Source: an uncultured Acidobacteriota bacterium (lineage in GTDB: Bacteria; Acidobacteriota; UBA6911). From it: a stretch of 64,000 bases of DNA. The notes under the pieces were generated by a model. That model ran no database searches, had not been told where the DNA came from, and saw nothing but the letters and a program-made list of their open reading frames with translations. The position numbers were made by a program, and so were the translations under genes. Shown piece by piece: positions 1,313 through 22,084 of this stretch (within the stretch, counting starts at the first letter, position 1; every line of letters begins with the position of its first letter). The stretch covers positions 320,001 through 384,000 of the forward strand of contig CAWJKZ010000019.1 of assembly GCA_963843575.1 (NCBI GenBank), read 5' to 3'.

Positions 1313-1377
1313 TGAGCAGTTCTGAACATAGCGTTGAGCAATATTGAACTGTGGAATAAATTGTAATCCTATATCGT
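1313..1377 (+). promoter_or_regulatory. Tandem-box promoter, site A (DUF883 operon)
   Basis: TGAGCAGTTCTGAAC (1313) and TGAGCAATATTGAAC (1335), 22 bp apart; TATCGT 22 nt after box 2. Confidence 0.75.
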
Positions 1378-1436
1378 GTTTCCGTGCTTTGGAATCTGGA
1401 AAATTCTATCTTTCGATCTGCAGAAATGGAGCGACT

Positions 1437-1724
1437 ATGGATACTCTAGGTGAAAAGGATAGTGAGCGGTTCGGCAAGCGTGCGGCAGGCAGCATTGGCA
1501 GCGCTGTTGATTTAGCAGGCCAGAAGTTGGATGCTGCGGTTGATTACGTAGAGAGTGCGAAGCAAAACGTCCAGCACACTCTGGATAGAGTGCGCCAAGA
1601 CGGGTGGAAGGGAGCCCAAACAAGGTTGATGGAATATACCCGTCGTGAACCTGCTACTGCTTTGCTGATCGCAATCGGCACCGGTGTGATTGTAGGGTGG
1701 TTAACGAAAAAGACCCGAGGGTAG
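1437..1724 (+). CDS. DUF883/ElaB/YqjD-like tail-anchored stress protein
   Basis: Helical N-terminus and C-terminal YTRREPATALLIAIGTGVIVGWL anchor; GGAG upstream of ATG 1437. Confidence 0.75.
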   Translation: MDTLGEKDSERFGKRAAGSIGSAVDLAGQKLDAAVDYVESAKQNVQHTLDRVRQDGWKGAQTRLMEYTRREPATALLIAIGTGVIVGWLTKKTRG

Positions 1725-1728
1725 GTAG

Positions 1729-2160
1729 ATGAGCGCAGGTGCTGAGGTAAATCCCCCTCATGCCGAATCGTCACGTTCCCAACTCCCGTCCCTTTTTAAC
1801 AGATTTGGCGATCAATTACTTAGGCTGTTCGACACCCACCTTGCCCTCTTCAAAGCTGAGTTCAAGGGAGCCGTTAAGATTTATGCAAAGCACCTCATCT
1901 TAACGATTTCTGCCGCGCTGGTTGCGATGGTGGGATTCTTTTTCCTGAGTGTGGGGCTTGTACTCTGGGTCGATGCACACATTAACAATGTGGGCATTTC
2001 ATTCGGTTGCGTGGGAGGGGCTTACCTGACGATCGGTGTCCTAACAGCCCTGGCGGCAGCAAGGAGAGTAACCAATCAGGCTCCCGTCTTTAATCAGACG
2101 CTGGAAGAACTGGAGAGCGACCAACAATGGATAAAGACAGAGACTCAAGCGGCCAGGTAA
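1729..2160 (+). CDS. Holin-like (YhjD/DUF1469-type) membrane protein
   Basis: LFDTHLALFKAEF, two TM helices, C-terminal QTLEELESDQQWIK; sits between DUF883 and DUF3618 genes. Confidence 0.75.
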   Translation: MSAGAEVNPPHAESSRSQLPSLFNRFGDQLLRLFDTHLALFKAEFKGAVKIYAKHLILTISAALVAMVGFFFLSVGLVLWVDAHINNVGISFGCVGGAYLTIGVLTALAAARRVTNQAPVFNQTLEELESDQQWIKTETQAAR

Positions 2161-2546
2161 ACTCAAAGCAAGAACTGCAGCGGGAGTTGGAGAGAACACG
2201 GCAGTCCATGTCGGATACACTGGGTGAAATCGAAGGGGAAATCTCTGACGCCTTTGACTGGCGAACTTATGTCAGAAGGCACCCGGGAGCTTTTTTGATC
2301 GGAGGCGGAGCACTTGGTTTCATCATCGGCCGTACCATCACAGGATCCGGATACCCTGCGAACGTAAGGAGCGGTCATCATCAGGGCGGCGCCTTTGAAG
2401 GGACCATGGATCAATCGCCTAAGCTCCTTTCCGAAGATTCGAGCATCCGTAGGGTTATTGACATGACCGCCTCGGCGCTGCTTGCACAGTTGGTCCCGAT
2501 TGTGTCTTCCAAGTTGAGAAACCTTCTTGGGATTCACCCCGGTTGA
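2127..2546 (+). CDS. DUF3618-domain protein
   Basis: ELQRELERTRQSMSDTLGEI and DWRTYVRRHPGAFLIGGGALGF motifs; overlaps previous gene. Confidence 0.7.
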   Translation: MDKDRDSSGQVNSKQELQRELERTRQSMSDTLGEIEGEISDAFDWRTYVRRHPGAFLIGGGALGFIIGRTITGSGYPANVRSGHHQGGAFEGTMDQSPKLLSEDSSIRRVIDMTASALLAQLVPIVSSKLRNLLGIHPG

Positions 2547-2582
2547 GCTTCGAGGTGGCGAATCGATTCAGGACGCAGAACA

Positions 2583-2726
2583 ACACGGGCGCGAATGAAA
2601 AACAAAAGCCAAAACAGAACGCAGATCCCGCGGATCCAACGGATTCACGCGGATCGACCGCATCCTGTCGCCAGGTCGATCTGTTGGGATCCGCGCGCAT
2701 CCGCGTCCTGAACAAAATACGTTAGC
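2583..2726 (+). repeat. Palindromic MITE/REP-like element, family 1 (CGCGGAT ~9-nt units), copy 1
   Basis: CAAAAGCCAAAACAGAACGCAGAT...ATCCGCGCGCATCCGCGTCCTGAA; closely matches the reverse complement of 48576-48722 and the copies at 31099 and 60843. Confidence 0.8.
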
Positions 2727-2760
2727 TGTTGCAGGGCGCGGGTCCGAGGGTCGGCGCGCG

Positions 2761-2847
2761 CTATCTGCGCCAACGTGAGTATCCCCAACCGCCGCCACCG
2801 ATCAAAAACAACACGACAATAATGATGATCAAAGTTTCCGTTGACAT
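2761..2847 (-). CDS. 28-aa single-TM microprotein MSTETLIIIIVVLFLIGGGGWGYSRWRR
   Basis: Manual translation (below ORF-track cutoff); GGGAGAG RBS just upstream of ATG; downstream of promoter site B. Confidence 0.75.
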   Translation of the reverse strand: MSTETLIIIIVVLFLIGGGGWGYSRWRR

Positions 2848-2981
2848 GTCTCTCCCATCCTTGCGTAACTCATGATTGTTCATTAGCGTCTGTAAACCAT
2901 GCCGCGCAAACGGACTTCACCGTGACAGGACCCCGCTGGTGCGGTCATCTCGCTCCCGTCCGGCATCCGAGGCACGGCTCC

Positions 2982-3046
2982 TTTATACTCAGAAGGTTGT
3001 GGCGTGTCAGTTCAGTATGGCTCACACATATGGTCTATTTTGCTCA
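2982..3046 (-). promoter_or_regulatory. Tandem-box promoter, site B (microprotein; divergent from cgs)
   Basis: Minus strand TGAGCAAAATAGACC, then TGAGCCATACTGAAC 22 bp later, then CTGACA-N17-TATAAA. Confidence 0.8.
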
Positions 3047-3291
3047 TCGCATTTAGGGTTGTTGGAAAACCCCGGGCAAAGGCACCGGGCTCTTCTGTTC
3101 CGCCCCCCTCCGGGGCTCCGGGACGAAGTGAATGGATCGAGTTCTGTCCGGCTGTTACGGCCGCTAGCGACCGGTTTCCGCAAAACCGCAACGGTCAAGC
3201 GAGAATGGCCAGAGGAAGAACTGTCCAAAAGCGTCGTGTCCCGGTTGCGCTCCGGTTCGATAAGAGTTAGCTTTCAAATGAGGAGAACAGC

Positions 3292-6200
3292 TTGAAGGTG
3301 AGCGAGCCAGATCTTAGGCAACCTGCTGCATTATGTGGCAACCCTCCACGGAAAGGACCCGACGCAAGAATTACGGCGGCGACGAGCCACCGTTGCGATC
3401 GGAACTGTTCAGCAGCGACCAGATGGAGCAGCACGGCAAGGCCCTGGCGGGTTCGCATCAGGTGGGTTCGGGACACGCACCGGACCAACTCCTGACACGC
3501 CTGGCAGAGAATGAAGGGGTGCTCATCGAGGTTCGCAACCTGCTGCTGGAGCCGGTCGAGACGAAGCGCCAGATGACGCCGGCCGGAGAATGGCTGCTGG
3601 ACAACTTCTATCTGATCGAGGAGCAGATTCGCACGGCCAAGAGGCATCTGCCCAAGGGATACAGCCGGGAATTGCCGCGCCTGGTGAACGGCCCATCCGC
3701 CGGACTTCCGCGCGTGTACGACATCGCGCTGGAGACGATCTCGCACGGCGATGGACGGGTGGATTCGGAAAGTCTCAGCAGCTTCGTGGCAGCCTACCAG
3801 TCGGTCAGTGCCCTGAATCTGGGCGAATTGTGGGCAATCCCCATCATGCTCCGCCTGGCGTTGATCGAAAATCTCCGCCGCGTGGGAGCCCGACTGGGCG
3901 CCGGCAGAATCTATCGAAACCAGGCCGACCATTGGGCCGGCCGGATGACGGAGATCGCCGAGAAGGACCCGAAGAGTCTGATCCTCGTGACCGCGGATAT
4001 GGCGCGGTCCAGTCCGCCGATGGTGAGCTCGTTCGTCGCGGAGTTTGCGCGCCGTTTGCAGGGACAGAGCCCCGCGCTGGCATTGCCGCTTACCTGGATC
4101 GAGCAGCGACTCTCCGAGTCCGGCCTGACGATCGATCAGCTGGTTCAGTCGGAACACCAGCAACAGGCCGCCGACCAGGTCTCGCATCAGCAACAGCATC
4201 GGCAGCCTCCGATTTCTGGGAGCGATGGACTGGCGAGAGTTCGTCGAGACGCTGAGCGTTGTCGACCAGGTTCTTCGTGAGGATGCCGGCGGAGTCTACG
4301 GCAAGATGGATTTTGCCACCCGCGACCGCTACCGTCACGCCGTGGAGAAAATAGCGAAGAGCAGCCCTCTATCCGAAGATGCTGTGGCGCGCAAGGCCAT
4401 CCAGTTAGCCCGCGAAGGCGCAGCCAACAAAGGGAGTCTCGATCGAGAGGCCCATGTCGGATTCTACCTGATCGACAAGGGCGTGCCGCAGCTCGAACGA
4501 GCTGTGAAGGCGCGCCTGTCTATTGCGAGAAACTGTTCGGCGAATGAGCAGTCGGTTTCCTCTGCTCCTCTATCCAGGCACCATCACGCTGATCACAGCG
4601 ATACTGTCCGCGGGCTTGTTGGCGAAGGCGCATGCCGGCGGGTTGCATGGTTGGGCGCTCGCTCTGGTCGGAATCCTGACGCTTCTGTGCTCAAGTCATC
4701 TGGCGGTCGCGCTGGTGAATTGGCTGGTGACGCTGCTGGTGACGCCGCATCCGCTGCCGCGCATGGACTTCTCCGGAGGAATTCCGCCGGAATCCCGCAC
4801 CCTGGTCGTGATCCCGACGATGCTCACGAGTTCTCAGAATGTCGAGGATCTTGTCGAGGCGCTTGAAGTCCGCTTCCTGGCCAATCGGGATGAAAACCTG
4901 CACTTCGGCCTGCTGACCGATTTCCGAGACGCCCACGAGGAAACGATTCCGGAGGATGAGCCGCTGCTGCGGCTTGCCGAGAAGAGAATCAGGGAGCTGA
5001 ATGAAAAGTATGGAGGTGCGAAGATGCGACACCTTCTTTCTTTTTCATCGCCCGCGCCGATGGAATCCCCGGGAGCGGCGGTGGATGGGTTACGAGCGCA
5101 AGCGAGGAAAACTCGCGGAATTGAATTCTCTCTTGCGCGGCGGTTCGAGGGAGCGTTTCTCGACCGTGGTCGGTGAAACTGCAGTCTTATCAAACGTGAA
5201 GTACGTGATCACGCTCGACACGGATACGCAACTGCCGCGCGATTCGGCGCGGCAGTTTGTGGGAGCCATGGAGCACCCGCTGAATCGGGCGCGGTACTGC
5301 CACGACAAGCAGCGTGTCTGTGAGGGGTATGGCATTCTTCAGCCGCGTGTGGCCGTGAGCCTGCCGGGCACCAACCGGTCCAGGTATGCGCGGCTGTTTG
5401 GCAGCGAGCCGGGCATCGATCCTTACACGCGCGCAGTCTCCGATGTTTACCAGGACTTGTTCGGTGAAGGCTCGTTCATCGGCAAAGGCATTTATGATGT
5501 GGATGCATTTGAGCTGGCGCTCAACGGCCGCTTTCCCGAGAACCGCATCCTCAGCCACGACCTTCTCGAAGGGTGTTACGCGCGGGCGGGGCTGATGAGC
5601 GACGTGCAGTTGTATGAGGAATATCCATCCCGCTACAGCGCCGACGTGAGCCGCCGGCACCGCTGGATTCGCGGAGACTGGCAGATTGCCCGGTGGTTGC
5701 TGCCGCGCGTCCCCGGTCCAGGCGGGCGCCGTCAAAAGAACCCGCTCTCGGGATTGTCCCTGATGGAAGATCTTCGACAATCTGCGGCGCAGTCTCGTGC
5801 CTCGGCATTGACACTCCTGCTGCTCCTGGGCTGGATGTTCCTGTCACCTGTCTGGCTGTGGTCATTGTCGGTGACCGGCAATCATCCTGATTCCTTCCTT
5901 GATTGGATCCATTCTGGAGATCGCTCGAAAACCGGCTGATGTGCTGCTGAGTCAGCACATCGCAGGCTGCACTGCGATCGGCAGGCCGGCACCTGGCTCA
6001 GGCAGCGTTTATGCTCGTGTGCCTGCCCTACGAAGCATTCTTCAGCCTGGATGCGATCGTACGAACGGCGGTAAGGATGTTTGTCACACGCAGGCGACTC
6101 CTGGAATGGAGTCCGTCGACCGATCCCGACCGCAATACCCGCTCGAGCCTTTTCGCCTCTTGCCGCTCGATGTGGATCGCGCCCTTCTTGGCCACCGCGG

Positions 6201-9200
6201 CAGGAATCTATCTGGCGCTTTCGAGACCTGCCGCGCTAGCCACCTCCGTCCCCATACTGGGTCTCTGGTTTGCCTCTCCTGCCATCGCCTGGTGGATCAG
6301 CCGGCCGCTTGCGCGCCGGGAGGCGAGGCTGACGGCTGAACAGATCGTCTTTCTCCGCAAGCTCTCCCGAAAGATCTGGGCGTTCTTCGAGACTTTTGTC
6401 GGCCCGGAAGACCATTGGCTGCCGCCCGACAACTTTCAGGAGCATCCGGTTGAAGTCGTGGGACATCGCACGTCGCCGACCAATATGGGACTTGCACTGC
6501 TCGCAAATCTGTCCGCATACGACTTCGGCTATATCCCGGCCGGACAGCTCATCGTGCGCACGGGGAATGCATTCGATACGATGGAGGGCCTGGAGCGGTA
6601 CAGAGGCCACTTCTACAACTGGTACGACACACAGTCTTTGAAACCGCTGTTGCCGGCCTACGTTTCGTCGGTGGACAGCGGAAACCTCGCGGGCCTCCTG
6701 CTGACATTGCGGCCAGGTCTGCTCGAGCTTCCCGATCACAGGATCCTGGCGCCGCGCTTTTTTGACGGACTCGGCGACACGCTGAGAATCCTGGTGGACG
6801 CTGCGGGAGAAGCCGCTCCGGCGGCGCTGGCCCGACTGCAGAGGGATCTGGACGACGCATTGTCTTCCAGGCCGACAACGCTTGATGCGGCGCGGCAGTG
6901 TCTCGGCCGGCTGGCAAAATCCGCCGCGGCGGTGGAGCGCAGCCTCGAGGCTCGATCCCGGGAGCCAGGCACGTGGTGGGCGAATGCCCTTGCCCGGCAA
7001 TGCCAGGGAGCACTCGATGATCTGATGTTTCTGGCTCCTTGGACATCTCTGTCGCCCCCGAAGAACCCGGCCAGCGAGATCTCCGGTCTCGACGAGATTC
7101 CCACCCTGCGCGAACTGGCAGGATTTGAGGCGAAGCTGCTGCCGGCGATCGAGCGCCGGCTCCTGTCGGCGGGCAATCCAGAGGAGAAGCGCATGGCTCG
7201 GCGGAGCTTCGACCCTCCATCATTGAAGCAAGCCGACGCGCCCAAGAGAGGATTGCGTCCATTGAAAGGCTCGCACTGCGCTCGGTCGAACTCTCCCATA
7301 TGGAGTATGACTTCCTGTACGACAAGGCCCGTCATTTATTGGCGATCGGATACAACGTTTCCGCGCACCGGCGCGATTCGAGTTACTACGATCTGTTGGC
7401 TTCGGAAGCGAGATTGGCCAGTTTTGTAACGATAGCCCAGGGACAGCTGCCTCAGGAGAGCTGGTTTGCCCTGGGGCGTCTGCTCACTACCGCCGGCGGA
7501 GATCCGATCCTGCTTTCGTGGGGCGGATCGATGTTCGAGTATCTCATGCCACTGCTGGTAATGCCGACCTACGAGAACACGCTGCTCGACCAGACCTGCA
7601 AAGCGGCGGTGGACCGGCAGATTGAGTATGGGAGGACACGCGGGGTGCCCTGGGGCATTTCGGAATCCGGCTACAATGCGGTCGACGTCCATCTCAACTA
7701 TCAGTACCGGGCGTTTGGCGTACCCGGCCTGGGACTCAGACGAGGGCTGGCCGAGGATTTGGTCATTGCACCGTATGCGTCAGCATTGGCGCTGATGGTG
7801 GCGCCCGAGGAGGCGTGCCTCAATCTGCAGCGACTCGCCGCCGACGGCTTTGAAGGAAGATACGGCTTCTATGAAGCCATCGACTACACGCCGTCGCGTC
7901 AACCACGCGGTCAATCGAGTGCCGTGGTCCGGTCGTTCATGGCACACCACCAGGGCATGAGCTTGCTGGCACTGGCGTATCTGCTCCTGGACCGCCCGAT
8001 GCAGAAGCGATTCGAGTCGGATCCGTTGTTCCAGGCGACCATGCTGTTGCTCCAGGAGCGCATTCCAAAGGCGACGGCGTTCTTCTCGCAGGCTGCCGAG
8101 CTTTCCGACTTGCGTAGGATCTCCAACGGCACGGAAACGCCGATCCGCGTCTTCAGCAGCCCCGACACTCCGATACCGGAGGTGCAGTTGCTGTCAAATG
8201 GCAGATACCACGTGATGGTCACGAACGCGGGCGGAGGATACAGCCGCTGGAAGAATCTCGCGGTCACACGCTGGCGGGAAGACAGCACCTGCGACAACTG
8301 GGGCATGTTCTGCTACATCCGCGACGCAACCAGCGGGGATGTCTGGTCCACGGCATATCAGCCGACGCGCAAAGGATCGGAGAAGTACGAGGCGATTTTT
8401 TCGGAGGCGCGCGCGGAGTTCCGTCGCCGGGACCACGACATCGAGACACATACGGAGATCGCAGTCTCACCTGAGGATGACATCGAGCTGCGCCGGATTA
8501 CCGTTACCAACCGTTCCCGGACCCGCAGGGTGATCGAACTGACGAGCTATGCGGAAGTCGTTCTCGCGTCGCCTGCAGGCCGACGCACTGCATCCGGCGT
8601 TCAGCAATCTCTTTGTTCAGACCGAGATTATCAGCCGGCAGAGGGCGATCCTGTGCACCCGCCGGCCGCGCTCGCTCGACGAGCCGACGCCATGGATGTT
8701 TCACCTTCTCGCGCGTCCAGGGCGCGGACATTGGGGAGATATCCTATGAGACCGACCGCTTGCAGTTCATCGGCAGGGGAAACACCGTCGCCGACCCGCA
8801 AGCGATGCGCGGTTCTGCGGACGCTCTCCGGCAGCCAGGGATCCGTTCTCGATCCGATTGTCGCGATCCGATACCGGATCACACTCGATCCGGAAGAATC
8901 GGCGTCGGTGAATGTCGTCTCCGGCATCGGTGAAACCCGGGACGAGTGCCTGGGGCTGGTTGAGAAATACCAGGACCGGCGTCTGGCGGATCGTGTCTTT
9001 GAACTTGCCTGGACGCATGGCCAGGTGGTCCTGCGGCAGCTCAACGCCACGGAAGCCGACGCGCAACTCTATGGACGCCTGGCCAGCTCCATCCTCTACG
9101 CCAATTCCTCTCTGCGCGCCGACCCGAGCGTCCTCATAAAAAACCGCCGAGGGCAATCCGGTCTGTGGGGCTACTCCATTTCCGGCGATTTGCCGATCGT

Positions 9201-12243: not shown

Positions 12244-12585
12244 TCAGGCGTCGGCTATTTTAACCTTGGCGTCCGGGCTGGTTCCTTTGATGACAACCTT
12301 CACAGCATCTTCCATCGGGTCTTTGAAGGGAACCTCGATCCGGAGCAGGCCGTGCTCGTAGGTCGCTTCTGCTTTGACGGGTTTCACCGGCCAGCCTAAA
12401 GCCAGTGCCGAAACATACTCGACGTCCCTTGCCGGCGCTGTCAGGTGAATGCTGTCTTCCAGGATCTTCACATCGATGCTCTCTGTTGGCGCTCCCGGGA
12501 TGGCGAACTCTACTACCAGCTTGTTGGTCTCCGCGTCCGCATACGCCACCGTATTTGGCGCAACCTTGATTCGATATTCCGACAT
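12244..12585 (-). CDS. Hsp20/alpha-crystallin small heat-shock protein
   Basis: VEFAIPGA...IDVKILEDSIHLTA...AEATYEHGLLRIEVPF; AGAGAGGG RBS before ATG 12585. Confidence 0.85.
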   Translation of the reverse strand: MSEYRIKVAPNTVAYADAETNKLVVEFAIPGAPTESIDVKILEDSIHLTAPARDVEYVSALALGWPVKPVKAEATYEHGLLRIEVPFKDPMEDAVKVVIKGTSPDAKVKIADA

Positions 12586-12741: not shown

Positions 12742-12806
12742 TGCATACCATCATGGCCCTTCGGTGTAAGTTCACTACTGATCACAGGTATGGTCAAAAC
12801 AGCTCA
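12742..12806 (-). promoter_or_regulatory. Tandem-box promoter, site C (hsp20)
   Basis: Minus strand TGAGCTGTTTTGACC and TGATCAGTAGTGAAC 22 bp apart; TATGCA 22 nt after box 2. Confidence 0.75.
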
Positions 12807-12819
12807 TTTAGAACTGCAG

Positions 12820-12884
12820 TGAGCCATTTTGACCGTTGTTCTGATCAATAGCGAACTGACATAGGATATCCACAAGGGTATATA
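12820..12884 (+). promoter_or_regulatory. Tandem-box promoter, site D (Gln-rich protein)
   Basis: TGAGCCATTTTGACC (12820), TGATCAATAGCGAAC (12842), then CTGACA-N17-TATATA. Confidence 0.8.
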
Positions 12885-13030
12885 TAGAGTGCCTCCAGGA
12901 TCTGGTGGGAGGCGGACGACAGAAGTGAGAAGTTGTCTGTTTCCTACGCTGTTTGTCGTGCTCCTCGGCGCATTGCATTCCGGGGGGGCTGCATTTCATG
13001 GAGCAAGCGGATTATTAGAGGAGGGGGACA

Positions 13031-14296
13031 ATGAGAGTTATCTCGAATCGGGTTGTGTTGGTGGTTGCGATTGTCATATTGTCGTTGTCGGGAATGAGTG
13101 CGCTAACCAACGCGCAGGAAGATCAAAAACAAAAGCAAAAAAAGGAGGTACAAAAGCAGCAGAACCCCAAGCAGCAGCAGCAAAAACAACAGCTCGACAA
13201 AAAAGAGCAGCAGGCAGCGCAGCAACAAAGGGTCCAGCAACAGCAGCAAGGGAAAAACAAGCAGCAGCAGCAAGCCCAGCAGCTGGCCGAGCAGCAGCGG
13301 AATCTGCAGCAGCAGCAGGAGCAGAACAGGCAGCAGCAGCTGGCGCAGCAACAGCAGATCCAGCAACAGCAGCGGCTAGCCCAGCAGGAGCGGAATCTGC
13401 AACTGCAGCGGCAGCAGCAGGAGCAGAACAGGCAGCAGCAGCTGTCACAGCAACAGCAGGTCCAGCAACAGCAGCGGCTAGCCCAGCAGGAGCGGAATCT
13501 GCAACTGCAGCGGCAGCAGCAGGAGCAGAACAGGCAGCAGCAGCTGGCGCAGCAACAGCAGATCCAGCAACAGCAGCGGCTCGCCCAGCAGGAGCGGAAT
13601 CTGCAACTGCAGCGGCAGCAGCAGGAGCAGAACAGGCAGCAGCAGCAAGACCGGAACTGGCAAACACAGCGTACGCAGCAGCAACAGGAGCGTCTCTCAC
13701 AACAACGTCAGCAGCAACTCATTGAACAGCAGCAGCAACGCATGACGCAGTACCGTCAACATGTGGACCAGGAGCAGCGTCTCGCCCCACAGCGTATAGA
13801 ACAGCTTCAGCAGCAAAATCGGATGGCGCAATACCGTTTTCAACAACAGTACTTAGAGCGTATGCGTCAACAGCAAATGCGTTTCCAGAACGATCTCAAC
13901 CATGATTATTCCCGTGATCCGTTTTTCTACACGGCTCCGAGCTATCGATACAATCGTGGCGGCACCTACTACGAGACAAATCAATACGGCGTAGATTTGC
14001 TCCGGAAGGCCGTGAACTACGGTTACGCAGAAGGCTACAGGGCCGGACAGGCAGACCGGTCGGATCGCTGGCGTTCCAGCTACCAGGACTCCTACGCCTA
14101 TCAGGATGCAAACTACGGTTATGCCGGCTATTACGTGGACCAGGACGCTTACAACTACTACTTTCGCGAGGGCTTCCGTCGGGGATATGAAGATGGCTTC
14201 GCGCGCCGCTATCAATATGGTCGCTATTCAAACGGTAACTATAGCATCCTCGACAACATCTTAGGGGGAATTCTCACCCTATCGTCGCTTCGCTGA
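13031..14296 (+). CDS. Secreted glutamine-rich repeat protein with Tyr/Gly-rich C-terminal domain
   Basis: Signal peptide, long region about half Gln, C-terminal GYAEGYRAGQAD and YFREGFRRGYEDG; GAGGAGG RBS. Confidence 0.8.
   Translation: MRVISNRVVLVVAIVILSLSGMSALTNAQEDQKQKQKKEVQKQQNPKQQQQKQQLDKKEQQAAQQQRVQQQQQGKNKQQQQAQQLAEQQRNLQQQQEQNRQQQLAQQQQIQQQQRLAQQERNLQLQRQQQEQNRQQQLSQQQQVQQQQRLAQQERNLQLQRQQQEQNRQQQLAQQQQIQQQQRLAQQERNLQLQRQQQEQNRQQQQDRNWQTQRTQQQQERLSQQRQQQLIEQQQQRMTQYRQHVDQEQRLAPQRIEQLQQQNRMAQYRFQQQYLERMRQQQMRFQNDLNHDYSRDPFFYTAPSYRYNRGGTYYETNQYGVDLLRKAVNYGYAEGYRAGQADRSDRWRSSYQDSYAYQDANYGYAGYYVDQDAYNYYFREGFRRGYEDGFARRYQYGRYSNGNYSILDNILGGILTLSSLR
13290..13645 (+). repeat. Intragenic 102-bp (34-aa) tandem repeat, about 3.5 copies
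   Basis: CGGCT(A/C)GCCCAGCAGGAG recurs at 13373, 13475 and 13577. Confidence 0.9.
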
Positions 14297-14479: not shown

Positions 14480-15235
14480 CTACGTGCTGCTTCGCATCCA
14501 GTTCTTGAGAATGTCGATGGGAACCGGGAAGACCACTGTCGTATTTTTCTCTACACCGATTTCGGTCAAGGTCTGCAGGTAGCGTAACTGAAGAGCTACC
14601 GGCTCCGTGTCTATGATGCCGGCGGCTTCCGCCAGTTTTGCCGCAGCCAGGCACTCCCCGTCCGCGTGGATGATCTTGGCTCTTTTCTCGCGCTCGGCTT
14701 CGGCCTGCTTGGCCATGGCACGCTGCATTTCCTGGGGCAGATCGACCTGCTTGACCTCCACGAGACTTACCTTGATCCCCCACGCGTCGGTGTGCTGATC
14801 GAGAATTGCCTGGAGCTTGACATTGAGTGTCTCTCGCCGGCTAAGCAAATCGTCCAAATCGACCTGGCCGAGAACCGAGCGCAAGGTCGTTTGCGCCAGT
14901 TGCGAGGTTGCGTAGAGATAATTCTCGACCTCCACGACGGCCCGAGGCGCATTCATGACCCTGAAATAGATGATCGCATTAACCTTCAGGGAAACGTTGT
15001 CGCGGGAAATGATGTCTTGGGGCGGCACTTCCAGGGTTACGGTGCGCAGACTGACCCGGACCATCCTGAAGACAGGCCAGAATATGAATACCAATCCTGG
15101 GCCCAGGGCCTCTGGCAGAAGACGGCCAAGCCTGAAGGCCACGCCGCGTTCGTATTCCTTGAGGATGTTTATCGTGCTCCAGACATAGAGAACGACAACG
15201 GCTATTCCAAAGAGCCAAAACATCGTAGGATCCAT
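14480..15235 (-). CDS. SPFH/slipin (stomatin-like) protein
   Basis: [44 protein letters not shown]. Confidence 0.92.
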
Positions 15236-15434: not shown

Positions 15435-15800
15435 TCATGCCGATTTGTCCGTCACAGCCCTCGGGGCGAAGCCTGCAACCGCTGCCTGCTCATTGTCATA
15501 AACCTGGAACACGGTCAAGAGCTTCGTGATTACCAGGAGTTCCCTTATTTTCCTGGTGAGGTTCAGGAGTTTTAGCTCCCCGCCCTCTTTCGTGACCGTC
15601 GTGTACGTTCTAACCAGCTCACCAATGCCCGAGCTGTCGACATAGTTCACGTCCGTCAAGTTCAGTACGACCTTCTTTCCACCATTCGCCAGAAGGTCGC
15701 TGATGGTGTGTCGAATGTTCGCCGTGGCTTCACCCAGGGTGATCTTACCGCTGATGTCCAGAACATGAACATCCCCAACCGCACGTGCGTGTATCTCCAT
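15435..15800 (-). CDS. STAS-domain anti-sigma-factor antagonist
   Basis: VVLNLTDVNYVDSSGIGELV with the phosphorylatable Ser; AAGGAG RBS before ATG 15800. Confidence 0.9.
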   Translation of the reverse strand: MEIHARAVGDVHVLDISGKITLGEATANIRHTISDLLANGGKKVVLNLTDVNYVDSSGIGELVRTYTTVTKEGGELKLLNLTRKIRELLVITKLLTVFQVYDNEQAAVAGFAPRAVTDKSA

Positions 15801-15843
15801 ACCTGTTTCTCTCCTTGTCTGCGAGTCCGTCGTATCCGCCGTC

Positions 15844-16737
15844 TCAGTGATATGCGGGCGTCGTTTTGTGCCGGAATTCGTCAACGCTCGATGAGTTCGG
15901 CACGCCTGCTCTTGGTCGCTTTACCTTGCTCGCAAGGCCTACCGCCTCGAGGGCACAGATGAGGTACCACCCAATGTCAGTCTGCCACCACCGCAGACCG
16001 AGGCGCGCCGATCCGGCGTTTTTGTGGTGATTTCTGTGCCAGTTTTCGCCCCACGCCGTCAATTGCAGCGGTCCGAGCCACCAGACGTTCATGCTGGAGT
16101 CCCCTTCAGTGGAGCGGCCCAGGTGAGTCAGACTGTTGACGAGACTCTGCATGTGCAGCGAATAGACCAGACGAATTGCGCCCAGCCAGAAGAAACCCTG
16201 CCATCCGAGCACGAGACCACAGCAGAGGGATAGCAGGATCACGGGAACTTCAGCAAAGGTCCAAATCTTGTACTCCCGGCGAGTCAACTCCGGGCACCAC
16301 CTTTTCCTGTCCGCCGGAGCTGACTGGTAAAGCCAGCGCAAGTGCGCCCACCAGAAGCCCCCCTGCTTAGGACTGGAGATGTCTTCCGGGGTATCCGTGC
16401 GTGCGTGATGCAGCCGGTGGTAGGCAACCCAACTGGCCGGCGCTCCCGAGCCGTTGAACATGGTCCAGAAAATAAGCAGGTGCTCAACGGCCTTGTTCAT
16501 CCTGAGAGTGCGGTGCGCCAGCATTCGATGGTAACAGACCGTCGTACCGAACCCGCCAAAGGCTGTGAGCAGGAGGGTTATGCCCAGAACCCGCATGCTG
16601 GGGAGGGGAAAGAGAATGAGACCGGCCAAAGCCAGGACGTGAATCAGCACCAGATAAAGAGCAACCCCCATCTTACCTCGGGCAGGCCTCCAGAAGGGCT
16701 GTTCCCACGGCCGAACCGCGTTAGTGGTCTTGTACAT
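15844..16737 (-). CDS. Acyl-lipid/acyl-CoA delta-9-type fatty acid desaturase
   Basis: His boxes HRMLAH, HRLHH, HRNHH; GFWWAH and WWQTDIGW. Confidence 0.88.
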   Translation of the reverse strand: MYKTTNAVRPWEQPFWRPARGKMGVALYLVLIHVLALAGLILFPLPSMRVLGITLLLTAFGGFGTTVCYHRMLAHRTLRMNKAVEHLLIFWTMFNGSGAPASWVAYHRLHHARTDTPEDISSPKQGGFWWAHLRWLYQSAPADRKRWCPELTRREYKIWTFAEVPVILLSLCCGLVLGWQGFFWLGAIRLVYSLHMQSLVNSLTHLGRSTEGDSSMNVWWLGPLQLTAWGENWHRNHHKNAGSARLGLRWWQTDIGWYLICALEAVGLASKVKRPRAGVPNSSSVDEFRHKTTPAYH

Positions 16738-16795: not shown

Positions 16796-16860
16796 TCATT
16801 ACCCCGACGCGATTGGCCTGTCAGTTCATTACGGCTCAGTCGTATGGTCAAAATTGCTCA
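16796..16860 (-). promoter_or_regulatory. Tandem-box promoter, site E (desaturase-STAS-slipin)
   Basis: Minus strand TGAGCAATTTTGACC, TGAGCCGTAATGAAC 22 bp later, then CTGACA-N17-TAATGA. Confidence 0.8.
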
Positions 16861-16969: not shown

Positions 16970-17177
16970 GCAGGTGTCGCTGTTGGGGACTGCCGCCGGG
17001 CAGTCCCAGGAGTTTCGCCCCGGGGCCTCTAGCCGGATCGCTCACGTCCGGTTTTCAGTCCCGTGGCTTTCCCCCAAATCGGCAGCGAGGACGGCAGGTC
17101 AACAGCCCATTGCGGCCCTCTCGCCAAGTCCAAAAACGCCTGCAGTGCCTTGGTCCCTGCTGAGGCGCGCCAACCGA

Positions 17178-17242
17178 TGAGCAGTTTTGACCGGAAGCGT
17201 GAGCAAAATGGAACATACGCGCCAATGACCCATCGGTAATAT
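17178..17242 (+). promoter_or_regulatory. Tandem-box promoter, site F (zf-HC2 / radical SAM)
   Basis: TGAGCAGTTTTGACC (17178), TGAGCAAAATGGAAC (17200); TAATAT 22 nt after box 2. Confidence 0.75.
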
Positions 17243-17268
17243 CCTCTCATTAGGTCGCCGGAGGCATT

Positions 17269-17493
17269 ATGGGCGCATGCAGTTTTGACCGGTTGTTGCA
17301 GTTCATCAACGAGCGGTTGGACCTGGACGGGCAGCTTGAGGTCTACGATCACCTTGACCAATGCCCTATTTGCCGTGATGCCGTTTGCCAGCTTTTTCGT
17401 GAGCGGGATGGAGCATTCGAAACGGCAGCAGAATCTCCGGGCTGCGTACAGATGATCGCGGACGTTCTTGCAGGCATGGCGTGCCAGGCTTGA
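17269..17493 (+). CDS. Stand-alone zf-HC2 (anti-sigma-type zinc finger) small protein
   Basis: HLDQCPIC (HxxxCxxC) plus an N-terminal Cys; GGAGG RBS. Confidence 0.7.
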   Translation: MGACSFDRLLQFINERLDLDGQLEVYDHLDQCPICRDAVCQLFRERDGAFETAAESPGCVQMIADVLAGMACQA

Positions 17494-17582
17494 GGTTCAA
17501 GCCTGTGGTGCTCGAAGATACGCCTGGGACAATGGCACTTTCGGGTCGGGCCCCAGACACATATGCAGAATCCGAAGCTGTA

Positions 17583-19572
17583 ATGGAGCAAGCCCCGGCT
17601 AAGCGAATTGCGTGCAAACGCCTGACCGTAGTCCTGATCAAGCCCTCCAAGTATGATGACGAAGGCTACGTCATTCGTCATTTCCGTGGCGTCCTGCCAA
17701 GCAACACGCTGGCTTGCCTTTCGAGCCTCACCGAAGATCTGAAGCGCCGCAGGGTGCTTGGCCGCAAACTCGAAATAAGGATCCGAATCTTCGATGATAC
17801 GGTCCAGCCGATCCCTGTCGACAGGATCATTCGTTCCAACAAACTCCCTCGAAACCGGACGGTCGTCGCCCTGGTCGGTGTTCAATCCAACCAGTTTCCT
17901 CGCGCTGCCGACCTGGCCCGCCGCTTTCGTGCGGGAGGGCTGCAGGTCCTTATCGGAGGATTTCACGTCAGCGGCATCCTGGCTCTGTTTTCGGAAATCA
18001 GGCCTGAAATCCAGGAATTGATCGATCTCGGTGTCACCGTGGTGAAAGGTGAGGTGGAGGAGACGTGGGGAGATATTCTCGAGGATGCACTCCACGACAG
18101 GCTCAAACCGATCTACGACTTTCTGGACAGGAAGCCCGATCTCTCCGACAAGCCCGTGCCGATGATCCATCGCTCCTACCTGAAGCGCTTCATCACTTCA
18201 AATTTCGGTACGATCGACTGCGGCCGCGGCTGCCCCTACAACTGCAGCTTCTGCACGATCATTAACGTGCAGGGGCACAAAGTGCGCTTCCGGTCCGTTG
18301 AGACGCTGACCAGCGCCATTCGCGAAAACTATCATCGGCATGGCATCGACTACTACTTCTTCACCGACGACAACTTCGCACGGAATGCCTGCTGGCGTGA
18401 GGTTTTCGAAATGCTGGCACGCCTGCGAGCTGAAGAGGACATTTCCATCCGCTTCATGATCCAGGTGGACACACAGTCCTACAAGATCCCGGATTTCGTC
18501 GAGCTGGCTTCTCGCGCCGGCTGCACCCAGGTTTTCATCGGGATGGAGAGCATCAATCCGAGAAACCTGAAAGCCGCGGGCAAGGCCCAGAACAAGGTGC
18601 AGGAGTACAGGGAGATGATCGCGGCGTGGCATGCGGCAAAGATCGCCACGCACATCGCCTACATCATCGGTTTCCCGTTCGACACTCCCGAATCGGTTGA
18701 AGAGGACGTAAACAGCCTGAAGCAGGAACTCGGGGTGGAGCAGGTATCATTTTTCATGCTGACTGCCTCTGCCCGGCTCGCAGGATCACGCGCGCATGGT
18801 GCGCGCCGGGGAGTACATGGATCCCGATCTGAACACGTATGATTCCTTCCATGAGACCACGCGGCACCCGAACTTCGCTCCCGGTGAGTGGTATGCCACG
18901 TACCGGAAAGCCTGGCGGAGCTTCTACTCCTTTGATTACATGCGGCACGTCCTGGCGAACGCCAATCCCGAGAATTACTGGAATATCCTCCGCAATTTCA
19001 TCTGGTACAAGAACTCCGTGCAAATCGAGGGCGGCCATCCGATGATCCATGGGTTGTTCCGCATGAAAGACCGCACAGACCGCCGCCCTGGATTTCCCAT
19101 CGAATCACGTCTCAGGCACTTTGTGCGGCGTTTTCGCGATGTGCGCAGTCTCGCGCGGAAGTGGATCGCGCTGGTGCTGGAGATGGAGGAGCTTTGGCTG
19201 CAAACGCGCATCCGCAGCAAGGCCGAGCTCCGTCTTATATTCGAGTTGAAGCGGGCGCGCGAGGAGGTCAACCGCAACTTGCGGACGGCCGAACTGCAGA
19301 TCGCTCATTACCGGGCGAAAGTTCATGTGCCGGAGCTGCGCGTACCCTCCAGGCTGTCGTTGGCTTTCCGGGACCTCAATCTCGATCTGGCAAAACGGGT
19401 GACCTACTCCCGGGCGGATCTCCAAGTGTTTTGGAACAGGACCTGGAAAAGGTGGCGCCGCCGGCAGATCCTCCTCATTCGCCCGCACAGGGTATTCCTG
19501 AATTTTCTTCGCGACGCCGAGTTGCTGTTGCTGTTTGCAGTAGCGCTTCTGCGTGCCGAACAGCACTCTTGA
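17583..19572 (+). CDS. B12-binding radical SAM protein (one frameshift near 18770)
   Basis: GRGCPYNCSFC (CxxxCxxC), FFTDDNF, VFIGMES, YIIGFPFDT; the TPLPGS motif spans the frameshift into ORF 18796..19572. Confidence 0.85.
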
Positions 19573-19635
19573 GCCACACCCCGGCCGGCTGACCGTGAAG
19601 GGCCGGTCCGGATTTGATCAAGAACGCAACCTTAA

Positions 19636-19782
19636 GGGCTCGCGCAAGAATTATTTCACATTTTGCTGACGGTTCCCGAGCCAACAGATCATGCAGCAAC
19701 TAACGATAGGAGATTGCTATTGACGGAGCCGTCAGCCCTCCGGGGCGCGGCGCCACAATGTGAACTTATTTCTTGCGCGAAC
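19636..19782. mobile_element. Putative MITE, family 3 (TIR GGGYTCGCGCAAGAA...TTCACAT)
   Basis: Left GGGCTCGCGCAAGAATTATTTCACATT, right AATGTGAACTTATTTCTTGCGCGAAC; internal CTGACGGTTCC/GGAGCCGTCAG stem; related ends at 26276, 46136, 59293. Confidence 0.65.
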
Positions 19783-19820
19783 GTATTCTTGGGATGGAGC
19801 TGGTCACCGATTGACAACAG

Positions 19821-20127
19821 CAGAACGCGGATCTTCGCGGATTTTACGGATTCACGCGGATCGGCCGCGCCCGGCATTCCTCCCCGAGGGCCGGCGCTTC
19901 GCGCCGATGCATCAAAGCCCGGCTCCCGCAGGAAAGCGCGCGGTTGGAAGGATGCCGCTTCGATTCAAGGTCCACGTTTTCCTGCAGGAGCCGGGCTTTG
20001 ATGCGTGCCAAAGGCAGCCCTCGGGGAGGAATGCCGGGCGCGGCCTGCCAGCAGGCAGCAATCCGCGTGTATCCGCGCAAATCCGCGTCCTGGAATCGTC
20101 AGCGTATTTCTGAACACGAGTACTAAG
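19821..20127 (+). repeat. Family 1 element with nested long inverted repeats
   Basis: Perfect 29-bp IR (19863-19891/20017-20045) and 26/27 IR (19909-19935/19978-20004) inside CGCGGAT arms; ends GTACTAAG. Confidence 0.8.
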
Positions 20128-20131
20128 CTGA

Positions 20132-20196
20132 TGAGCAATATTGCCCAGGCCGGTGATCAGTACTGCACTGACACGCGCCCCATCCGAAGCTATAAA
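20132..20196 (+). promoter_or_regulatory. Tandem-box promoter, site G (VWA-sortase)
   Basis: TGAGCAATATTGCCC (20132), TGATCAGTACTGCAC (20154), then CTGACA-N17-TATAAA. Confidence 0.8.
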
Positions 20197-20287
20197 GACA
20201 TGTGCTTCGAGCTGTCCGCCGGACAGGGCTCAGCACGTCAGATTGGGACTAAACCTTCAGTAGGGGAATGCACGGGGAGGTGAGGTC

Positions 20288-21313
20288 GTGCGGGTTGCGG
20301 TTGTTCTGAGTTCCCGGGCTTACGCAAGGAGGAAGGGTGCCGTCGCACACCTGTGTCTGGCCGCATTATATTCCCTGATCATTTTACCCGGCATTGCGCG
20401 CGCTCAAGAGGCGCCGCCGTCGCAGAGCCAGAGCTGCCAAGGGGACCAGTATACGATAAGTGTGAGCGTTGACATGGTGGTCCTGAACGCGACTGTGGTG
20501 AATCGCAAAGGGGAGCTCGTTTCGGGACTCGGCCAGGGAGACTTTCGGGTTTACGAGGACGGACTCCTCCAAGAGGTTACGTCGTTCAGCCACGAAGACA
20601 TCCCGGTCACGGTCGGCCTGGTCGTCGACAACAGTGGAAGCATGCGGTCCAAGCGCCCCGAAGTCATTTTCGCGGCATTGGCGTTTGCCCGCTCCAGCAA
20701 TGCGGAAGACCAGATGTTCGTGGTCAGTTTCAACGAAAGCGTTTCGTTCGGCCTGCCAGACGACACGCCGTTTACGGATAAGGAGGCTCAACTGAAGGCC
20801 GCCCTGTCCAGGATTGCCGCAAACGGCAAGACGGCCCTCTACGACGCCGTGGCTGCTGCACTCGAACACCTAAAAAAGGGAAATCGGGACAAGAAGGTGC
20901 TGATCGTGATTAGTGATGGAGGCGACAACGCCAGCACGCGCAAACTTGCAGAGATCATGGCCATGGCGGCCCAGTCCGATGCCATCGTCTACACGATTGG
21001 TGTCTTCGATGAGACTGATCCCGACCGCAACCCGGGTGTGCTCAAGCAGCTTGCAAAGACCACGGGTGGCCAGGCTTTCTTTCCCGAATCTGTTAAGGAA
21101 GTCTTCCCTATTTGCAACCAGATCGCTCGTGACATTCGCAACCAGTACTCCCTCGCGTACCTGCCCAAGAATGTGAAGCAGGACGGGACTTATCGGGTCA
21201 TACAGGTAGATGCCGGGACGCCGGGCCGCAAACGTTTGTCCGTCCGCACCCGGGCCGGGTACTATGCACCACTAACACCTGAACGAGTTACGGGAGCCGG
21301 AGCGGTCCCATGA
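20288..21313 (+). CDS. VWA domain protein (acidobacterial VWFA-related type)
   Basis: MIDAS DNSGS, TALYDA, VISDGGDNAS, QYSLAY, VRTRAGYYAP; signal peptide; start uncertain. Confidence 0.9.
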   Translation: MRVAVVLSSRAYARRKGAVAHLCLAALYSLIILPGIARAQEAPPSQSQSCQGDQYTISVSVDMVVLNATVVNRKGELVSGLGQGDFRVYEDGLLQEVTSFSHEDIPVTVGLVVDNSGSMRSKRPEVIFAALAFARSSNAEDQMFVVSFNESVSFGLPDDTPFTDKEAQLKAALSRIAANGKTALYDAVAAALEHLKKGNRDKKVLIVISDGGDNASTRKLAEIMAMAAQSDAIVYTIGVFDETDPDRNPGVLKQLAKTTGGQAFFPESVKEVFPICNQIARDIRNQYSLAYLPKNVKQDGTYRVIQVDAGTPGRKRLSVRTRAGYYAPLTPERVTGAGAVP

Positions 21314-21984
21314 AGATCCGAATTGAGGAGAGGCGACCTCTTCCGAGGCGAAATAATGTCTTCCTTTGTTGGGGCCGGCGCCTCCTTTTTCTCATCGGCG
21401 CCCTGGCGGTGGGGTACGTCAGCTTCGCTTTCGTCGATGCGAGGCTTTATCAGGCCGCTCAAGCCCGGCGATTTCAACAGGAATTGGACAGCTTGAGAGC
21501 CTCTGCCGGCAGCGAACCCACTCCCCGGTCGCCCCTGCTTCCGCCCGCCGCGAACCATGCGAGAGCTGATATCCCCGGCATCTCCGGGCGAGGAGACTCC
21601 TCGTTGGGGCGGATCGAGATAAAAACCATCGGCCTTGCGGCGATGATCCTCGAAGGTACCGATGGACGAACTCTGCGACACGCGGTAGGGCATATTCCCG
21701 GCACTCCGCTTCCGGGCCAGCAGGGGAATGTGGCCCTCACGGGGCACCGGGACACTTTTTTCAGGCCCTTGCACAATGTCCATAGGGATGACGAAATTAC
21801 CCTGACAACATTGGCAGGAATCTACCGTTATCGAGTGGACTCGACCCGAGTGGTCGAACCCGAGGACACCGAAGTGCTGGCTGATTCCAGCGATGCAGTC
21901 CTCACCCTGGTGACCTGTTATCCGTTTTATTATGTAGGCCCCGCACCCAGGAGATTTGTCGTTCGCGCCAGCCTGATTCATTGA
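21310..21984 (+). CDS. Class D sortase
   Basis: N-terminal TM; catalytic His (GHRDTFF), Cys (LTLVTCYPF), Arg (APRRFVV); ATGA overlap with VWA gene. Confidence 0.92.
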   Translation: MKIRIEERRPLPRRNNVFLCWGRRLLFLIGALAVGYVSFAFVDARLYQAAQARRFQQELDSLRASAGSEPTPRSPLLPPAANHARADIPGISGRGDSSLGRIEIKTIGLAAMILEGTDGRTLRHAVGHIPGTPLPGQQGNVALTGHRDTFFRPLHNVHRDDEITLTTLAGIYRYRVDSTRVVEPEDTEVLADSSDAVLTLVTCYPFYYVGPAPRRFVVRASLIH

Positions 21985-22018
21985 TTCGCCCCTGCAGCCG
22001 AGTTCGCCTCGCTTCGAG

Positions 22019-22084
22019 TGAGCTCTTTTGACCACACCGGCGAGCAATACTGAACTGACGAGTGCTGCGTCCCGAGGGTATAAA
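22019..22084 (+). promoter_or_regulatory. Tandem-box promoter, site H (microprotein, exported protein, possibly groESL)
   Basis: TGAGCTCTTTTGACC (22019), CGAGCAATACTGAAC (22041), then CTGACG-N18-TATAAA. Confidence 0.8.

Follow-up and report, generated by a model that had tools for sequence, protein, structure and literature searches.

What reads a set of promoters whose upstream boxes never vary in spacing or orientation? The question is raised by a 64,000-nucleotide stretch of DNA from an uncultured Acidobacteriota bacterium (contig CAWJKZ010000019.1, positions 320,001 to 384,000; the whole stretch is called the window below, and its first letter is position 1), in which eight promoters within 22 kb each carry two similar boxes upstream of the -35 hexamer. 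The answer that we favour, with moderate confidence and from the sequence and its relatives, is that two dimers of a CRP-like regulator would bind at about -41.5 and -63.5 and activate the sigma-70-type promoters of a conserved regulon of stress or dormancy type.

Eight tandem-box promoters and their recurrence

The window has a G+C content of 62.7% and contains no N. Re-reading of the sequence found all eight sites at the coordinates and on the strands assigned to them in the preliminary description (Table 1), each of them intergenic and pointing toward the adjacent open reading frame (ORF). Every site consists of a 15-bp box 1, 7 bp and a 15-bp box 2, which puts the starts of the two boxes exactly 22 bp from each other in eight cases out of eight. 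The consensus is TGAGC-AaTTTT-GACC for box 1 and TGAkC-nnTAnT-GAAC for box 2. The final base of box 2 is also the first base of the -35 hexamer CTGACA, from which 17 nt lead to the -10. CTGAC(A/G) is present at five sites (3046-, 12820+, 16860-, 20132+ and 22019+), and the remaining three have CTGTGG, CTTACA and CATACG. A hexamer beginning with TA, the same as earlier listed for each site, lies 22 nt 3' of box 2 at seven sites and 23 nt at 22019. The core promoter has a sigma-70-type layout, cTGACA-N17-TATAAn, usually with GG before the -10. Promoters 3 and 4 are arranged back to back; 13 bp separate their copies of box 1, and four boxes thus lie within 87 bp (12770-12856). The centres of the two box 1 copies are 29 bp apart, compared to 98-263 bp for the divergent pairs seen in other loci.

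A 37-bp position weight matrix (PWM) gave leave-one-out scores of 31.8-54.5 bits for the eight sites. The next-best position in the window, at 9.2 bits, is the reverse strand of a true site, and random DNA produced nothing comparable, the maximum over 100 Markov-1 random windows being 10.7 bits. A single-box PWM, trained only on sites from other genomes and used at a threshold of 11 bits, found 18 matches in the window, of which sixteen coincide with the boxes of the eight sites and the other two (4253+ and 22726-) are weak. Random windows contained a mean of 1.18 such matches and a maximum of three. By both matrices the earlier observation that no tandem site lies beyond 22.1 kb held good, and no clear lone box was found anywhere in the 64 kb. 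Upstream of box 1 the eight sites have no third box, only a weak composition bias at -8 to -1. Compared in pairs, the sites reach an identity of 0.76-0.80 over the boxes, 0.66 over the -35, 0.50 over the -10 and 0.27-0.38 over the spacers and flanks. Similarity is thus confined to the boxes and the two hexamers, which implies that the sites are independently maintained and are not copies of a repeat.

A collection of species-representative genomes was scanned with the pattern TGAGC-N6-GACC-N7-TGAKC-N6-GAAC, which five of the eight window sites match. At least 134 loci match it (designated here by L numbers), with 135 unique exact-pattern sites among the matches listed. About 35 chance matches were expected, as estimated from the size of the collection; seven loci having no TGAC and no TATAA downstream were set aside by eye as chance (L004, L011, L033, L034, L081, L085 and L093). 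Some 127 loci among the matches listed look real, and a hand count assigns them to about 65 assemblies. By hand count, 116 of the 134 listed loci bear the label Acidobacteria, Acidobacteriota, Terriglobia or Acidobacteriaceae, three metagenome-assembled genomes (MAGs) labelled Acidimicrobiia or Acidimicrobiaceae account for ten, and eight have other labels. Nearly all of the real-looking loci belong to MAGs of Terriglobia/Acidobacteriota, and the motif is conserved across many of these uncultured soil bacteria. Real-looking sites also occur in MAGs labelled Acidimicrobiia/Acidimicrobiaceae, Gammaproteobacteria and Desulfomonilaceae (L005, L006, L009, L050-L052, L058, L062, L063, L073, L076 and L084); mislabelling, mis-binning or gene transfer could explain these labels.

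Positions left free by the query are strongly conserved in the 128 exact-pattern sites that were kept, both within the box region (A6 88%, T8 89%, T11 94%, G22 87%) and 3' of box 2 (G39 98%, A40 95%, C41 97%). The external sites have in common T-rich centres in the boxes, TGACAC following box 2 and, another 22 nt on, GGTATAA. When 32 sites found by PWM alone are added, giving 160 external sites, 120 have a gap of 22 nt between box 2 and the -10 and 22 have one of 23 nt; in 103 the hexamer is TATAAA, TATAAG or TATAAC. Of 121 sites, 95 have a G two positions before the hexamer (-2) and 81 have one at -1. Of 21 box pairs outside the search pattern, 19 are 22 bp apart and two are 36 bp apart. As in the window, several other contigs hold many sites within 10-30 kb; a single contig, for example, carries those of L040-L043 and L116-L118.

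The genes that follow the sites in other genomes were surveyed by scanning 94 first downstream ORFs, each chosen as the longest one with a start 60-420 nt past a site. Among the families found were CsbD, BON, YtxH, YflT-like, dodecin, Cpn10, ferritin-like, Ysc84, PG_binding_1 and OmpA-family, together with BrkB, STAS, receiver domains, B12-radical-SAM, GGDEF-EAL, GTP cyclohydrolase I and glycosyltransferases. Small membrane proteins were also present, and many first ORFs had no family match, including Q/H-rich secreted proteins. Such content resembles that of general-stress or stationary-phase regulons of other bacteria, and by this analogy the genes driven by the motif are probably stress-responsive here as well.

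Downstream of the -10, over the eight sites and 144 external ones, there is a GTGCYTC-like stretch at 5-11 nt (G 51%, T 62% and G 65% at positions 5-7). It is real, only 50-65% conserved and in part a product of orthology. Some leaders form 5'-terminal hairpins, such as GCCUCC...GGAGGC at 12820+ (example +1 regions are 12889-12915 and 20201-20237), and the 5' end of the leader is paired in 81 of the 144 external sites. The first 45 nt from the predicted start fold slightly better than shuffles (29% have z < -1), but with a mean z of -0.45 the signal is too weak for a conserved 5' leader hairpin to be claimed.

A CRP-like regulator as candidate reader of the boxes

The preliminary description proposed an activator of the CRP/FNR kind binding as two phased dimers. 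The geometry of the sites, the genes found next to them elsewhere and the fact that no OmpR/PhoB-type gene recurs among the annotated neighbours all lend support to this proposal. The 5-N6-5 layout, TGAGC-N6-GAMCa in a 16-bp site, is present in all 16 window boxes and likewise in the 160 external sites. Symmetric positions are T1/A16 (box 1), G2/C15, C5/G12 and the A/T centre. As stated in the preliminary description, the 16-mer at 20132 is a single base change short of a perfect palindrome, but as a class the boxes are only pseudo-palindromic and true palindromes are a minority. Among variant boxes, judged by eye, perfect dyads (TGAGC..GCTC) and perfect direct repeats (TGAGC..TGAGC) are about equally frequent, and both are rare.

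Proteins of the CRP/FNR family bind as dimers, and a 22-bp pitch corresponds roughly to two turns of the helix and to one CRP footprint. With the transcription start predicted to lie about 7 nt after the hexamer, the box centres would be at -41.5 and -63.5. The 5-N6-5 box, the pitch and the predicted -41.5 position together match class II CRP/FNR promoters. We suggest that a clade-specific CRP/FNR regulator with the recognition helix GTTRSRVSHFMNKF, encoded outside the window, binds both boxes, so that two dimers would occupy the same face of the DNA. The proximal dimer would contact RNA polymerase in class II fashion and the distal one would stabilise it cooperatively.

The candidate itself emerged from the neighbours of the sites. 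A CRP/FNR-family gene lies directly after a site in L021 and L047, and tblastn with these genes found relatives of 46-77% identity in 26 of the 80 listed loci that have 2-kb flanks and in three of 54 short loci. Unbiased clustering of all 1066 ORFs of at least 80 amino acids from the 80 loci (up to 2 kb from the sites) returned the CRP-like subfamily as the commonest neighbour, in 25 loci. What look like antisense shadow ORFs of it make up the second-largest family (16 loci) and two further ones of 10 and 6 loci. Next came Ysc84 (13 loci) and three clusters of 11-12 loci, namely the DUF3300 family, Q-rich secreted proteins and the cluster of L001:2174-3199:+, which may be a shadow frame. Removal of duplicates from overlapping loci and of one single-linkage artefact left 22 distinct CRP-like genes. 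Sixteen of these have a site in the same orientation 11-430 bp past the stop codon, and seven sit in units headed by a site: directly after it in three cases (the second copy in L021, the first copy in L047, and L072), behind a receiver gene in L016, L069 and L029, and behind a zf-HC2 gene in L025. For most of the others the upstream DNA falls beyond the 2 kb that was fetched. The presence of the regulator gene inside motif-driven units makes positive autoregulation likely, and the model accordingly has the regulator gene itself driven by the motif in relatives, with an upstream receiver protein as a possible signal input.

The copies in L021, L047 and L072 have the domains PF00027 (cNMP_binding) and PF13545 (HTH_Crp_2). 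The nearest solved structures are GlxR and CRP-Mt (E about 2e-18), and the protein falls below every NCBIfam cutoff for CRP, FNR, NtcA, FixK, LdrP, YeiL and PtrA; the best scores are 52.9 bits for LdrP (cutoff 300) and 52.5 bits for CRP (cutoff 266). Of the 19 full-length copies, 18 have an identical recognition helix, as would fit all copies reading one DNA motif. From the R-E-T-V of the relatives, the arginine, which aligns with the first recognition residue of CRP, is retained here, and serine takes the place of the glutamate after it. In CRP this arginine reads the G of TG, and the motif here retains TG. In the phosphate-binding cassette G-E and R are present, the residue after R being mostly M or I, and T in a few. 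The 19-protein alignment also has an invariant GEGC with a conserved cysteine in the nucleotide-binding cassette. Since the Ser/Thr after the cassette arginine is lost and GEGC is present, cyclic AMP (cAMP) is not the obvious ligand; the cysteine and the lost Ser/Thr are hints of a ligand or redox signal other than cAMP. The subfamily is widespread, with at least 7970 environmental clusters (at 90% identity) having E <= 1e-40 among 8000 candidates scored, and the nearest Atlas clusters are mostly from Acidobacteriota.

Several MAGs carry more than one CRP-like copy. Tandem paralogue pairs, 60-77% identical, are found at L021:1231-2789(+) and L047:2092-4003(+), and the second copy in L021 has a divergent helix, RSQIRR. 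A protein of about 200 amino acids with a receiver domain and an unassigned C-terminal half is encoded directly 5' of the CRP-like gene in several motif-driven units (L016:2845-3441(-), L069:2372-2995(-), L056:98-775(+) and L029); it is a possible phosphorylation input to the CRP-like regulator.

A number of observations weigh against activation by two CRP-like dimers. Positions 3-4 (AG) and 13-14 (AC/AA) of the boxes are conserved and yet asymmetric, the boxes have the same orientation at every promoter, and a direct-repeat form, TGAGC/TGACC at a 10-bp offset, fits four of five half-site positions compared to three of five for the dyad. The cassette has R-M/I-A in place of the R-S/T of the cAMP type, unlike a cAMP-responsive CRP. 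The core is near the sigma-70 consensus, with a -35 that is unusually good for a class II promoter (the classical ones have poor -35 elements), and this leaves room for repression or a dedicated sigma factor. The window itself contains no CRP-like gene or remnant (best E 0.066), in agreement with the preliminary description. The genes of the regulon cluster in islands, so that any island gene becomes a frequent neighbour and the CRP-like genes could be mere targets. Finally, the search pattern fixed 18 positions, the conservation of which in external sites is by construction.

A more far-reaching version of the model is put forward only tentatively, as a possibility that we doubt somewhat more than we believe. 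In it the general stress or dormancy response of the Terriglobia would run through paralogous, cAMP-independent CRP-like regulators instead of an alternative sigma factor. These would act only as two abutting dimers (-63.5/-41.5) on a rigid 65-bp module of fixed asymmetric orientation, and would be positively autoregulated and receiver-gated. The conserved asymmetry of the boxes and the tandem paralogues of L021 and L047 would in that case even leave room for heterodimers or for a separate paralogue at each box.

Rival readings and known systems

The asymmetry of the boxes would be accommodated slightly better by a different protein, of OmpR/PhoB-, NarL- or LytTR-type, reading four head-to-tail repeats like pho boxes, with the CRP-like genes only members of the regulon. 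Tandem repeats that abut or replace the -35 are typical of PhoB-type activation, and the tandem pho boxes of PhoB/PhoP share with the present sites four short repeats, a length of about 44 bp ending at the -35 and 22 bp per pair. Here the repeats would be TGAGC, TGACC, TGAGC and TGAAC at offsets 1, 11, 23 and 33; the closer fit of the half-sites to direct repeats, the variant boxes that are perfect direct repeats and the receiver-domain proteins that recur in motif-driven units (L007, L016, L069 and L056) all favour it. Against it, the offsets run 10/12/10 and lack the regular 11-bp period of pho boxes, which also replace the -35. No DNA-binding domain was detectable in the recurrent receiver proteins, and no winged-helix (Trans_reg_C), GerE or LytTR family was found among the annotated recurrent neighbours, the part of the ORFs scanned being cluster representatives and first downstream ORFs. 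We regard this reading as rather unlikely. One protein of the window was considered as such a repeat binder, a 1021-amino-acid regulator with BTAD and AAA_16 domains (SARP/AfsR-like) encoded at 36070-39135 (+) in G+C-rich DNA (0.69-0.74). It was rejected; its N-terminus (36070-36500) has no winged-helix match at E <= 0.01, a distance of 14 kb and a difference in DNA composition separate it from the last site, and nothing was found that ties it to the motif.

If the boxes were instead operators of a repressor, CRP-like or other, the bound protein would block sigma region 4 or the C-terminal domain of the RNA polymerase alpha subunit until stress occurs. A core so near to consensus (95-98% at G39/A40/C41, a 17-nt spacer and TATAAn) should need little help, and box 2 overlaps the -35 by one base. 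Activators that touch RNA polymerase need strict placement, however, and repressors tolerate variable placement, so the strict registers from box to box and from box 2 to the -10 (22 nt in three-quarters of the external sites) argue for an activator. The three window promoters with CTGTGG, CTTACA and CATACG keep full boxes despite poor -35 hexamers, which again points to activation. Regulator genes in motif-driven units suit positive feedback, although negative autoregulation is also common. Repression is in our judgement unlikely.

It is very improbable that no separate factor is involved and that the whole 65-bp element is the extended promoter of a dedicated alternative sigma factor or sigma-associated protein. 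The conservation of the -35 and -10 is unusually high for a set of housekeeping promoters, the G before the -10 in most sites gives GGTAT, and the regulon includes STAS and zf-HC2 proteins, partners of sigma-factor switches. GGTAT is reminiscent of sigma-B-type -10 elements. Nevertheless, no sigma-factor gene occurs among the annotated recurrent neighbours, to our knowledge no sigma factor reads 37 bp upstream of the -35, and in size and pitch the boxes match a pair of dimeric helix-turn-helix sites. A promoter of the extracytoplasmic function type (GAAC-N16-17-CGT) or of the sigma-54 type (GG-N10-GC) was also considered and rejected, the GAAC lying 22 nt before TATAAn with a TGACA -35 between them. 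An origin of the sites by copying of a dispersed repeat or mobile promoter cassette, as eight similar 65-bp stretches within 22 kb might suggest, can be dismissed, for their flanks and 17-nt spacers are only 0.27-0.30 identical, with none of the similarity through spacers and flanks that marks repeat copies, and the same architecture precedes unrelated genes in the other assemblies.

Compared to known systems, the favoured arrangement of two CRP-like dimers is closest in form to the class II and class III CRP/FNR promoters of Escherichia coli. These share the 16-bp 5-N6-5 site at -41.5 (a predicted position here) overlapping the -35, and T-G at positions 1-2 and C-A at 15-16, as in TGTGA-N6-TCACA; class III promoters also have a second upstream dimer. 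The half-site here is TGAGC with GACC/GAAC and not TGTGA/TCACA, and its orientation is consistently asymmetric. The E. coli cases known to us have sites at about -61.5 alone, or at -90 and beyond, whereas here the second dimer would be fixed at -63.5, abutting the first, and the -35 is near consensus.

Three CRP-family systems offer parallels, as far as the accessible text of the respective reports goes. The closest documented functional analogue is SdrP (TTHA1359) of Thermus thermophilus, which probably activates stress-response genes in class II fashion; its sites adjoin or overlap the -35 and have one half-site more selective than the other (PMC8465061). The stress role, which is only a likely one here, the proximity to the -35 and the asymmetric half-sites are common to both. 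SdrP has the motif AWTGTRA-N6-TYACAWT and the recognition stretch VRETVTK, compared to TGAGC-N6-GAMC and TRSRVSH here in a different phylum, and the accessible text describes no obligate tandem pair for it (PMC8465061). In the mycobacterial proteins Cmr and CRP-Mt, positions 2, 3, 14 and 15 form a shared core and positions 4 and 13 set the specificity, a case which shows how CRP paralogues shift their motifs (PMC5758884). In Mycobacterium tuberculosis the targets of Cmr (Rv1675c) overlap a dormancy regulon (PMC4705688). The mycobacterial sites are single 16-bp sites, many of them intragenic, whereas those described here are strictly promoter-proximal tandem pairs with other motif letters. DdrI of Deinococcus radiodurans is a CRP-family protein that binds DNA without cAMP (PMC11253593); by description only, it resembles the present candidate, which also lacks the canonical Ser/Thr after the cassette arginine.

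The regulon had been called undescribed, and the literature searched, with subscription-only papers and supplements outside its scope, gave no description of the motif, of an acidobacterial CRP-type stress regulon or of tandem -41.5/-63.5 sites, nor of any other acidobacterial stress regulon or regulator motif. The accessible main text of a 2013 survey of the CRP/FNR family mentions neither Acidobacteria nor tandem sites nor TGAGC (PMC3590769). The system is a new regulon and promoter variant within a known regulatory kind, and its architecture would work like that of a class II/III CRP/FNR promoter. It is set apart by its motif letters, its recognition helix, its phylum and the obligate pairing of abutting sites at a fixed 22-bp pitch.

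Acidobacteria are among the most abundant soil bacteria and are hard to grow. A motif of about 45 bits can call a stress-type regulon directly in MAGs, and it comes with a rigid, testable promoter architecture and a concrete candidate regulator family that is very common in environmental data. The switch into persistence thereby becomes testable in a major soil phylum, and small proteins without family match are marked as stress-related by their shared control. If activation by two abutting CRP-type dimers is true, an unusual architecture would be added to a well-studied family.

Genes behind the window promoters and their surroundings

The genes assigned to each promoter of the window are given with the promoters in Table 1.

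Table 1. Tandem-box promoters of the window and the genes that follow them. Scores of promoters are leave-one-out PWM scores in bits.
Feature	Position	Strand	Elements or product	Score
Promoter 1	1313..1377	+	box 1 1313-1327, box 2 1335-1349, weak -35 CTGTGG 1349-1354, -10 TATCGT 1372-1377	40.8
Unit 1	1437-1724	+	95-amino-acid protein, no family match; relatives in L051/L052/L118 at 60-69% identity	
Unit 1	1729-2160	+	holin-X-like membrane protein (PF07332)	
Unit 1	2127-2546	+	139-amino-acid protein, weak DUF3618 match	
Promoter 2	2982..3046	-	box 1 3032-3046, box 2 3010-3024, -35 CTGACA 3005-3010, -10 TATAAA 2982-2987	38.4
Unit 2, first gene	2761..2847	-	28-amino-acid G-rich membrane protein (MSTETLIIIIVVLFLIGGGGWGYSRWRR), no family match	
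Promoter 3	12742..12806	-	box 1 12792-12806, box 2 12770-12784, -35 CTTACA, -10 TATGCA 12742-12747	54.5
Unit 3	12244..12585	-	Hsp20-like small heat-shock protein, 113 amino acids; PF00011 21.1 bits (cutoff 20.8)	
Promoter 4	12820..12884	+	box 1 12820-12834, box 2 12842-12856, -35 CTGACA 12856-12861, -10 TATATA 12879-12884	31.8
Unit 4	13031..14296	+	421-amino-acid A-rich protein, no family match; relative 80% identical after a site in L040/L041	
Promoter 5	16796..16860	-	box 1 16846-16860, box 2 16824-16838, -35 CTGACA 16819-16824, -10 TAATGA 16796-16801	45.2
Unit 5	15844-16737	-	fatty-acid desaturase	
Unit 5	15435-15884	-	STAS anti-sigma-factor antagonist; TIGR00377 69.3 bits (cutoff 53.45)	
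Unit 5	14480-15235	-	SPFH/Band-7 protein	
Promoter 6	17178..17242	+	box 1 17178-17192, box 2 17200-17214, weak -35 CATACG, -10 TAATAT 17237-17242	32.3
Unit 6	17269-17493	+	74-amino-acid zf-HC2-like protein (HxxxCxxC); PF13490 E 0.0028, below cutoff	
Unit 6	17481-18842	+	B12-type radical SAM protein	
Promoter 7	20132..20196	+	box 1 20132-20146 (near-palindrome), box 2 20154-20168, -35 CTGACA 20168-20173, -10 TATAAA 20191-20196	35.2
Unit 7	20288-21313	+	acidobacterial-type VWA protein; TIGR03436 216.9 bits (cutoff 81.25)	
Unit 7	21310-21984	+	class D-like sortase	
Promoter 8	22019..22084	+	box 1 22019-22033, box 2 22041-22055 (CGAGC), -35 CTGACG 22055-22060, -10 TATAAA 22079-22084 (23-nt gap)	41.3
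Unit 8	22194-22334	+	46-amino-acid basic protein, no family match	
Unit 8	22419-23108	+	229-amino-acid protein, no family match	

For several of these genes, relatives with 50-85% identity lie downstream of sites elsewhere, and the TIGR03436 match of unit 7 agrees with an acidobacterial origin of the window. The relatives of the first protein of unit 1 in L051 and L118 are the first ORF after a site, that of L051/L052 being 60% identical, and a G-rich mini-protein similar to that of unit 2 is found behind sites in L009 and L039. The relative of the Hsp20-like protein in L059, 85% identical, lies about 290 nt 3' of a site, behind a short membrane-protein ORF. In L025 an ortholog of the 74-amino-acid zf-HC2-like gene of unit 6 is followed by the CRP-like gene, and relatives of the unit 8 proteins lie after a site in L020. 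The three genes of unit 5 probably form one operon, to judge from their shared strand and spacing alone.

Downstream of unit 8, after a gap of 141 bp, are groES (23249-23551) and groEL (23607-25232) on the + strand. No tandem boxes precede them, and the CIRCE/HrcA operator (TTAGCACTC-N9-GAGTGCTAA) was rejected as a control element, with no match in the window at up to three mismatches. The window groESL may be read through from promoter 8 or be served by another promoter. In another genome a Cpn10 gene (L047:329-622, - strand) lies directly behind a 45-bit site.

Stretches resembling the N-terminal 100 or so amino acids of the radical SAM protein of unit 6, without the rest of the enzyme, adjoin CRP-like genes at L025:459-770(+) and L047:1027-1302(-), which suggests a separable small domain or gene remnants. 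The single strong match to the window in the search for CRP remnants proved to be of this kind, a radical-SAM-like N-terminal extension of an over-long ORF of L025, and was discarded.

Between promoters 2 and 3, on the + strand, the region 3333-11926 resembles a cyclic-beta-1,2-glucan synthase (GT2, glucoamylase-like, GH94 supersandwich and GH94 catalytic domains) divided among six ORFs that overlap in different frames. Frameshifts or assembly errors may have broken up a single giant gene here, and no motif site of the window faces it. The first 23,000 nucleotides, which contain all eight sites, have a G+C content of 0.49-0.63 per kb, compared to mostly 0.60-0.74 from 23000 to 64000, and third-position G+C is likewise lower there than in the rest of the window. 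The motif-driven genes form a compositionally distinct 'stress island'.

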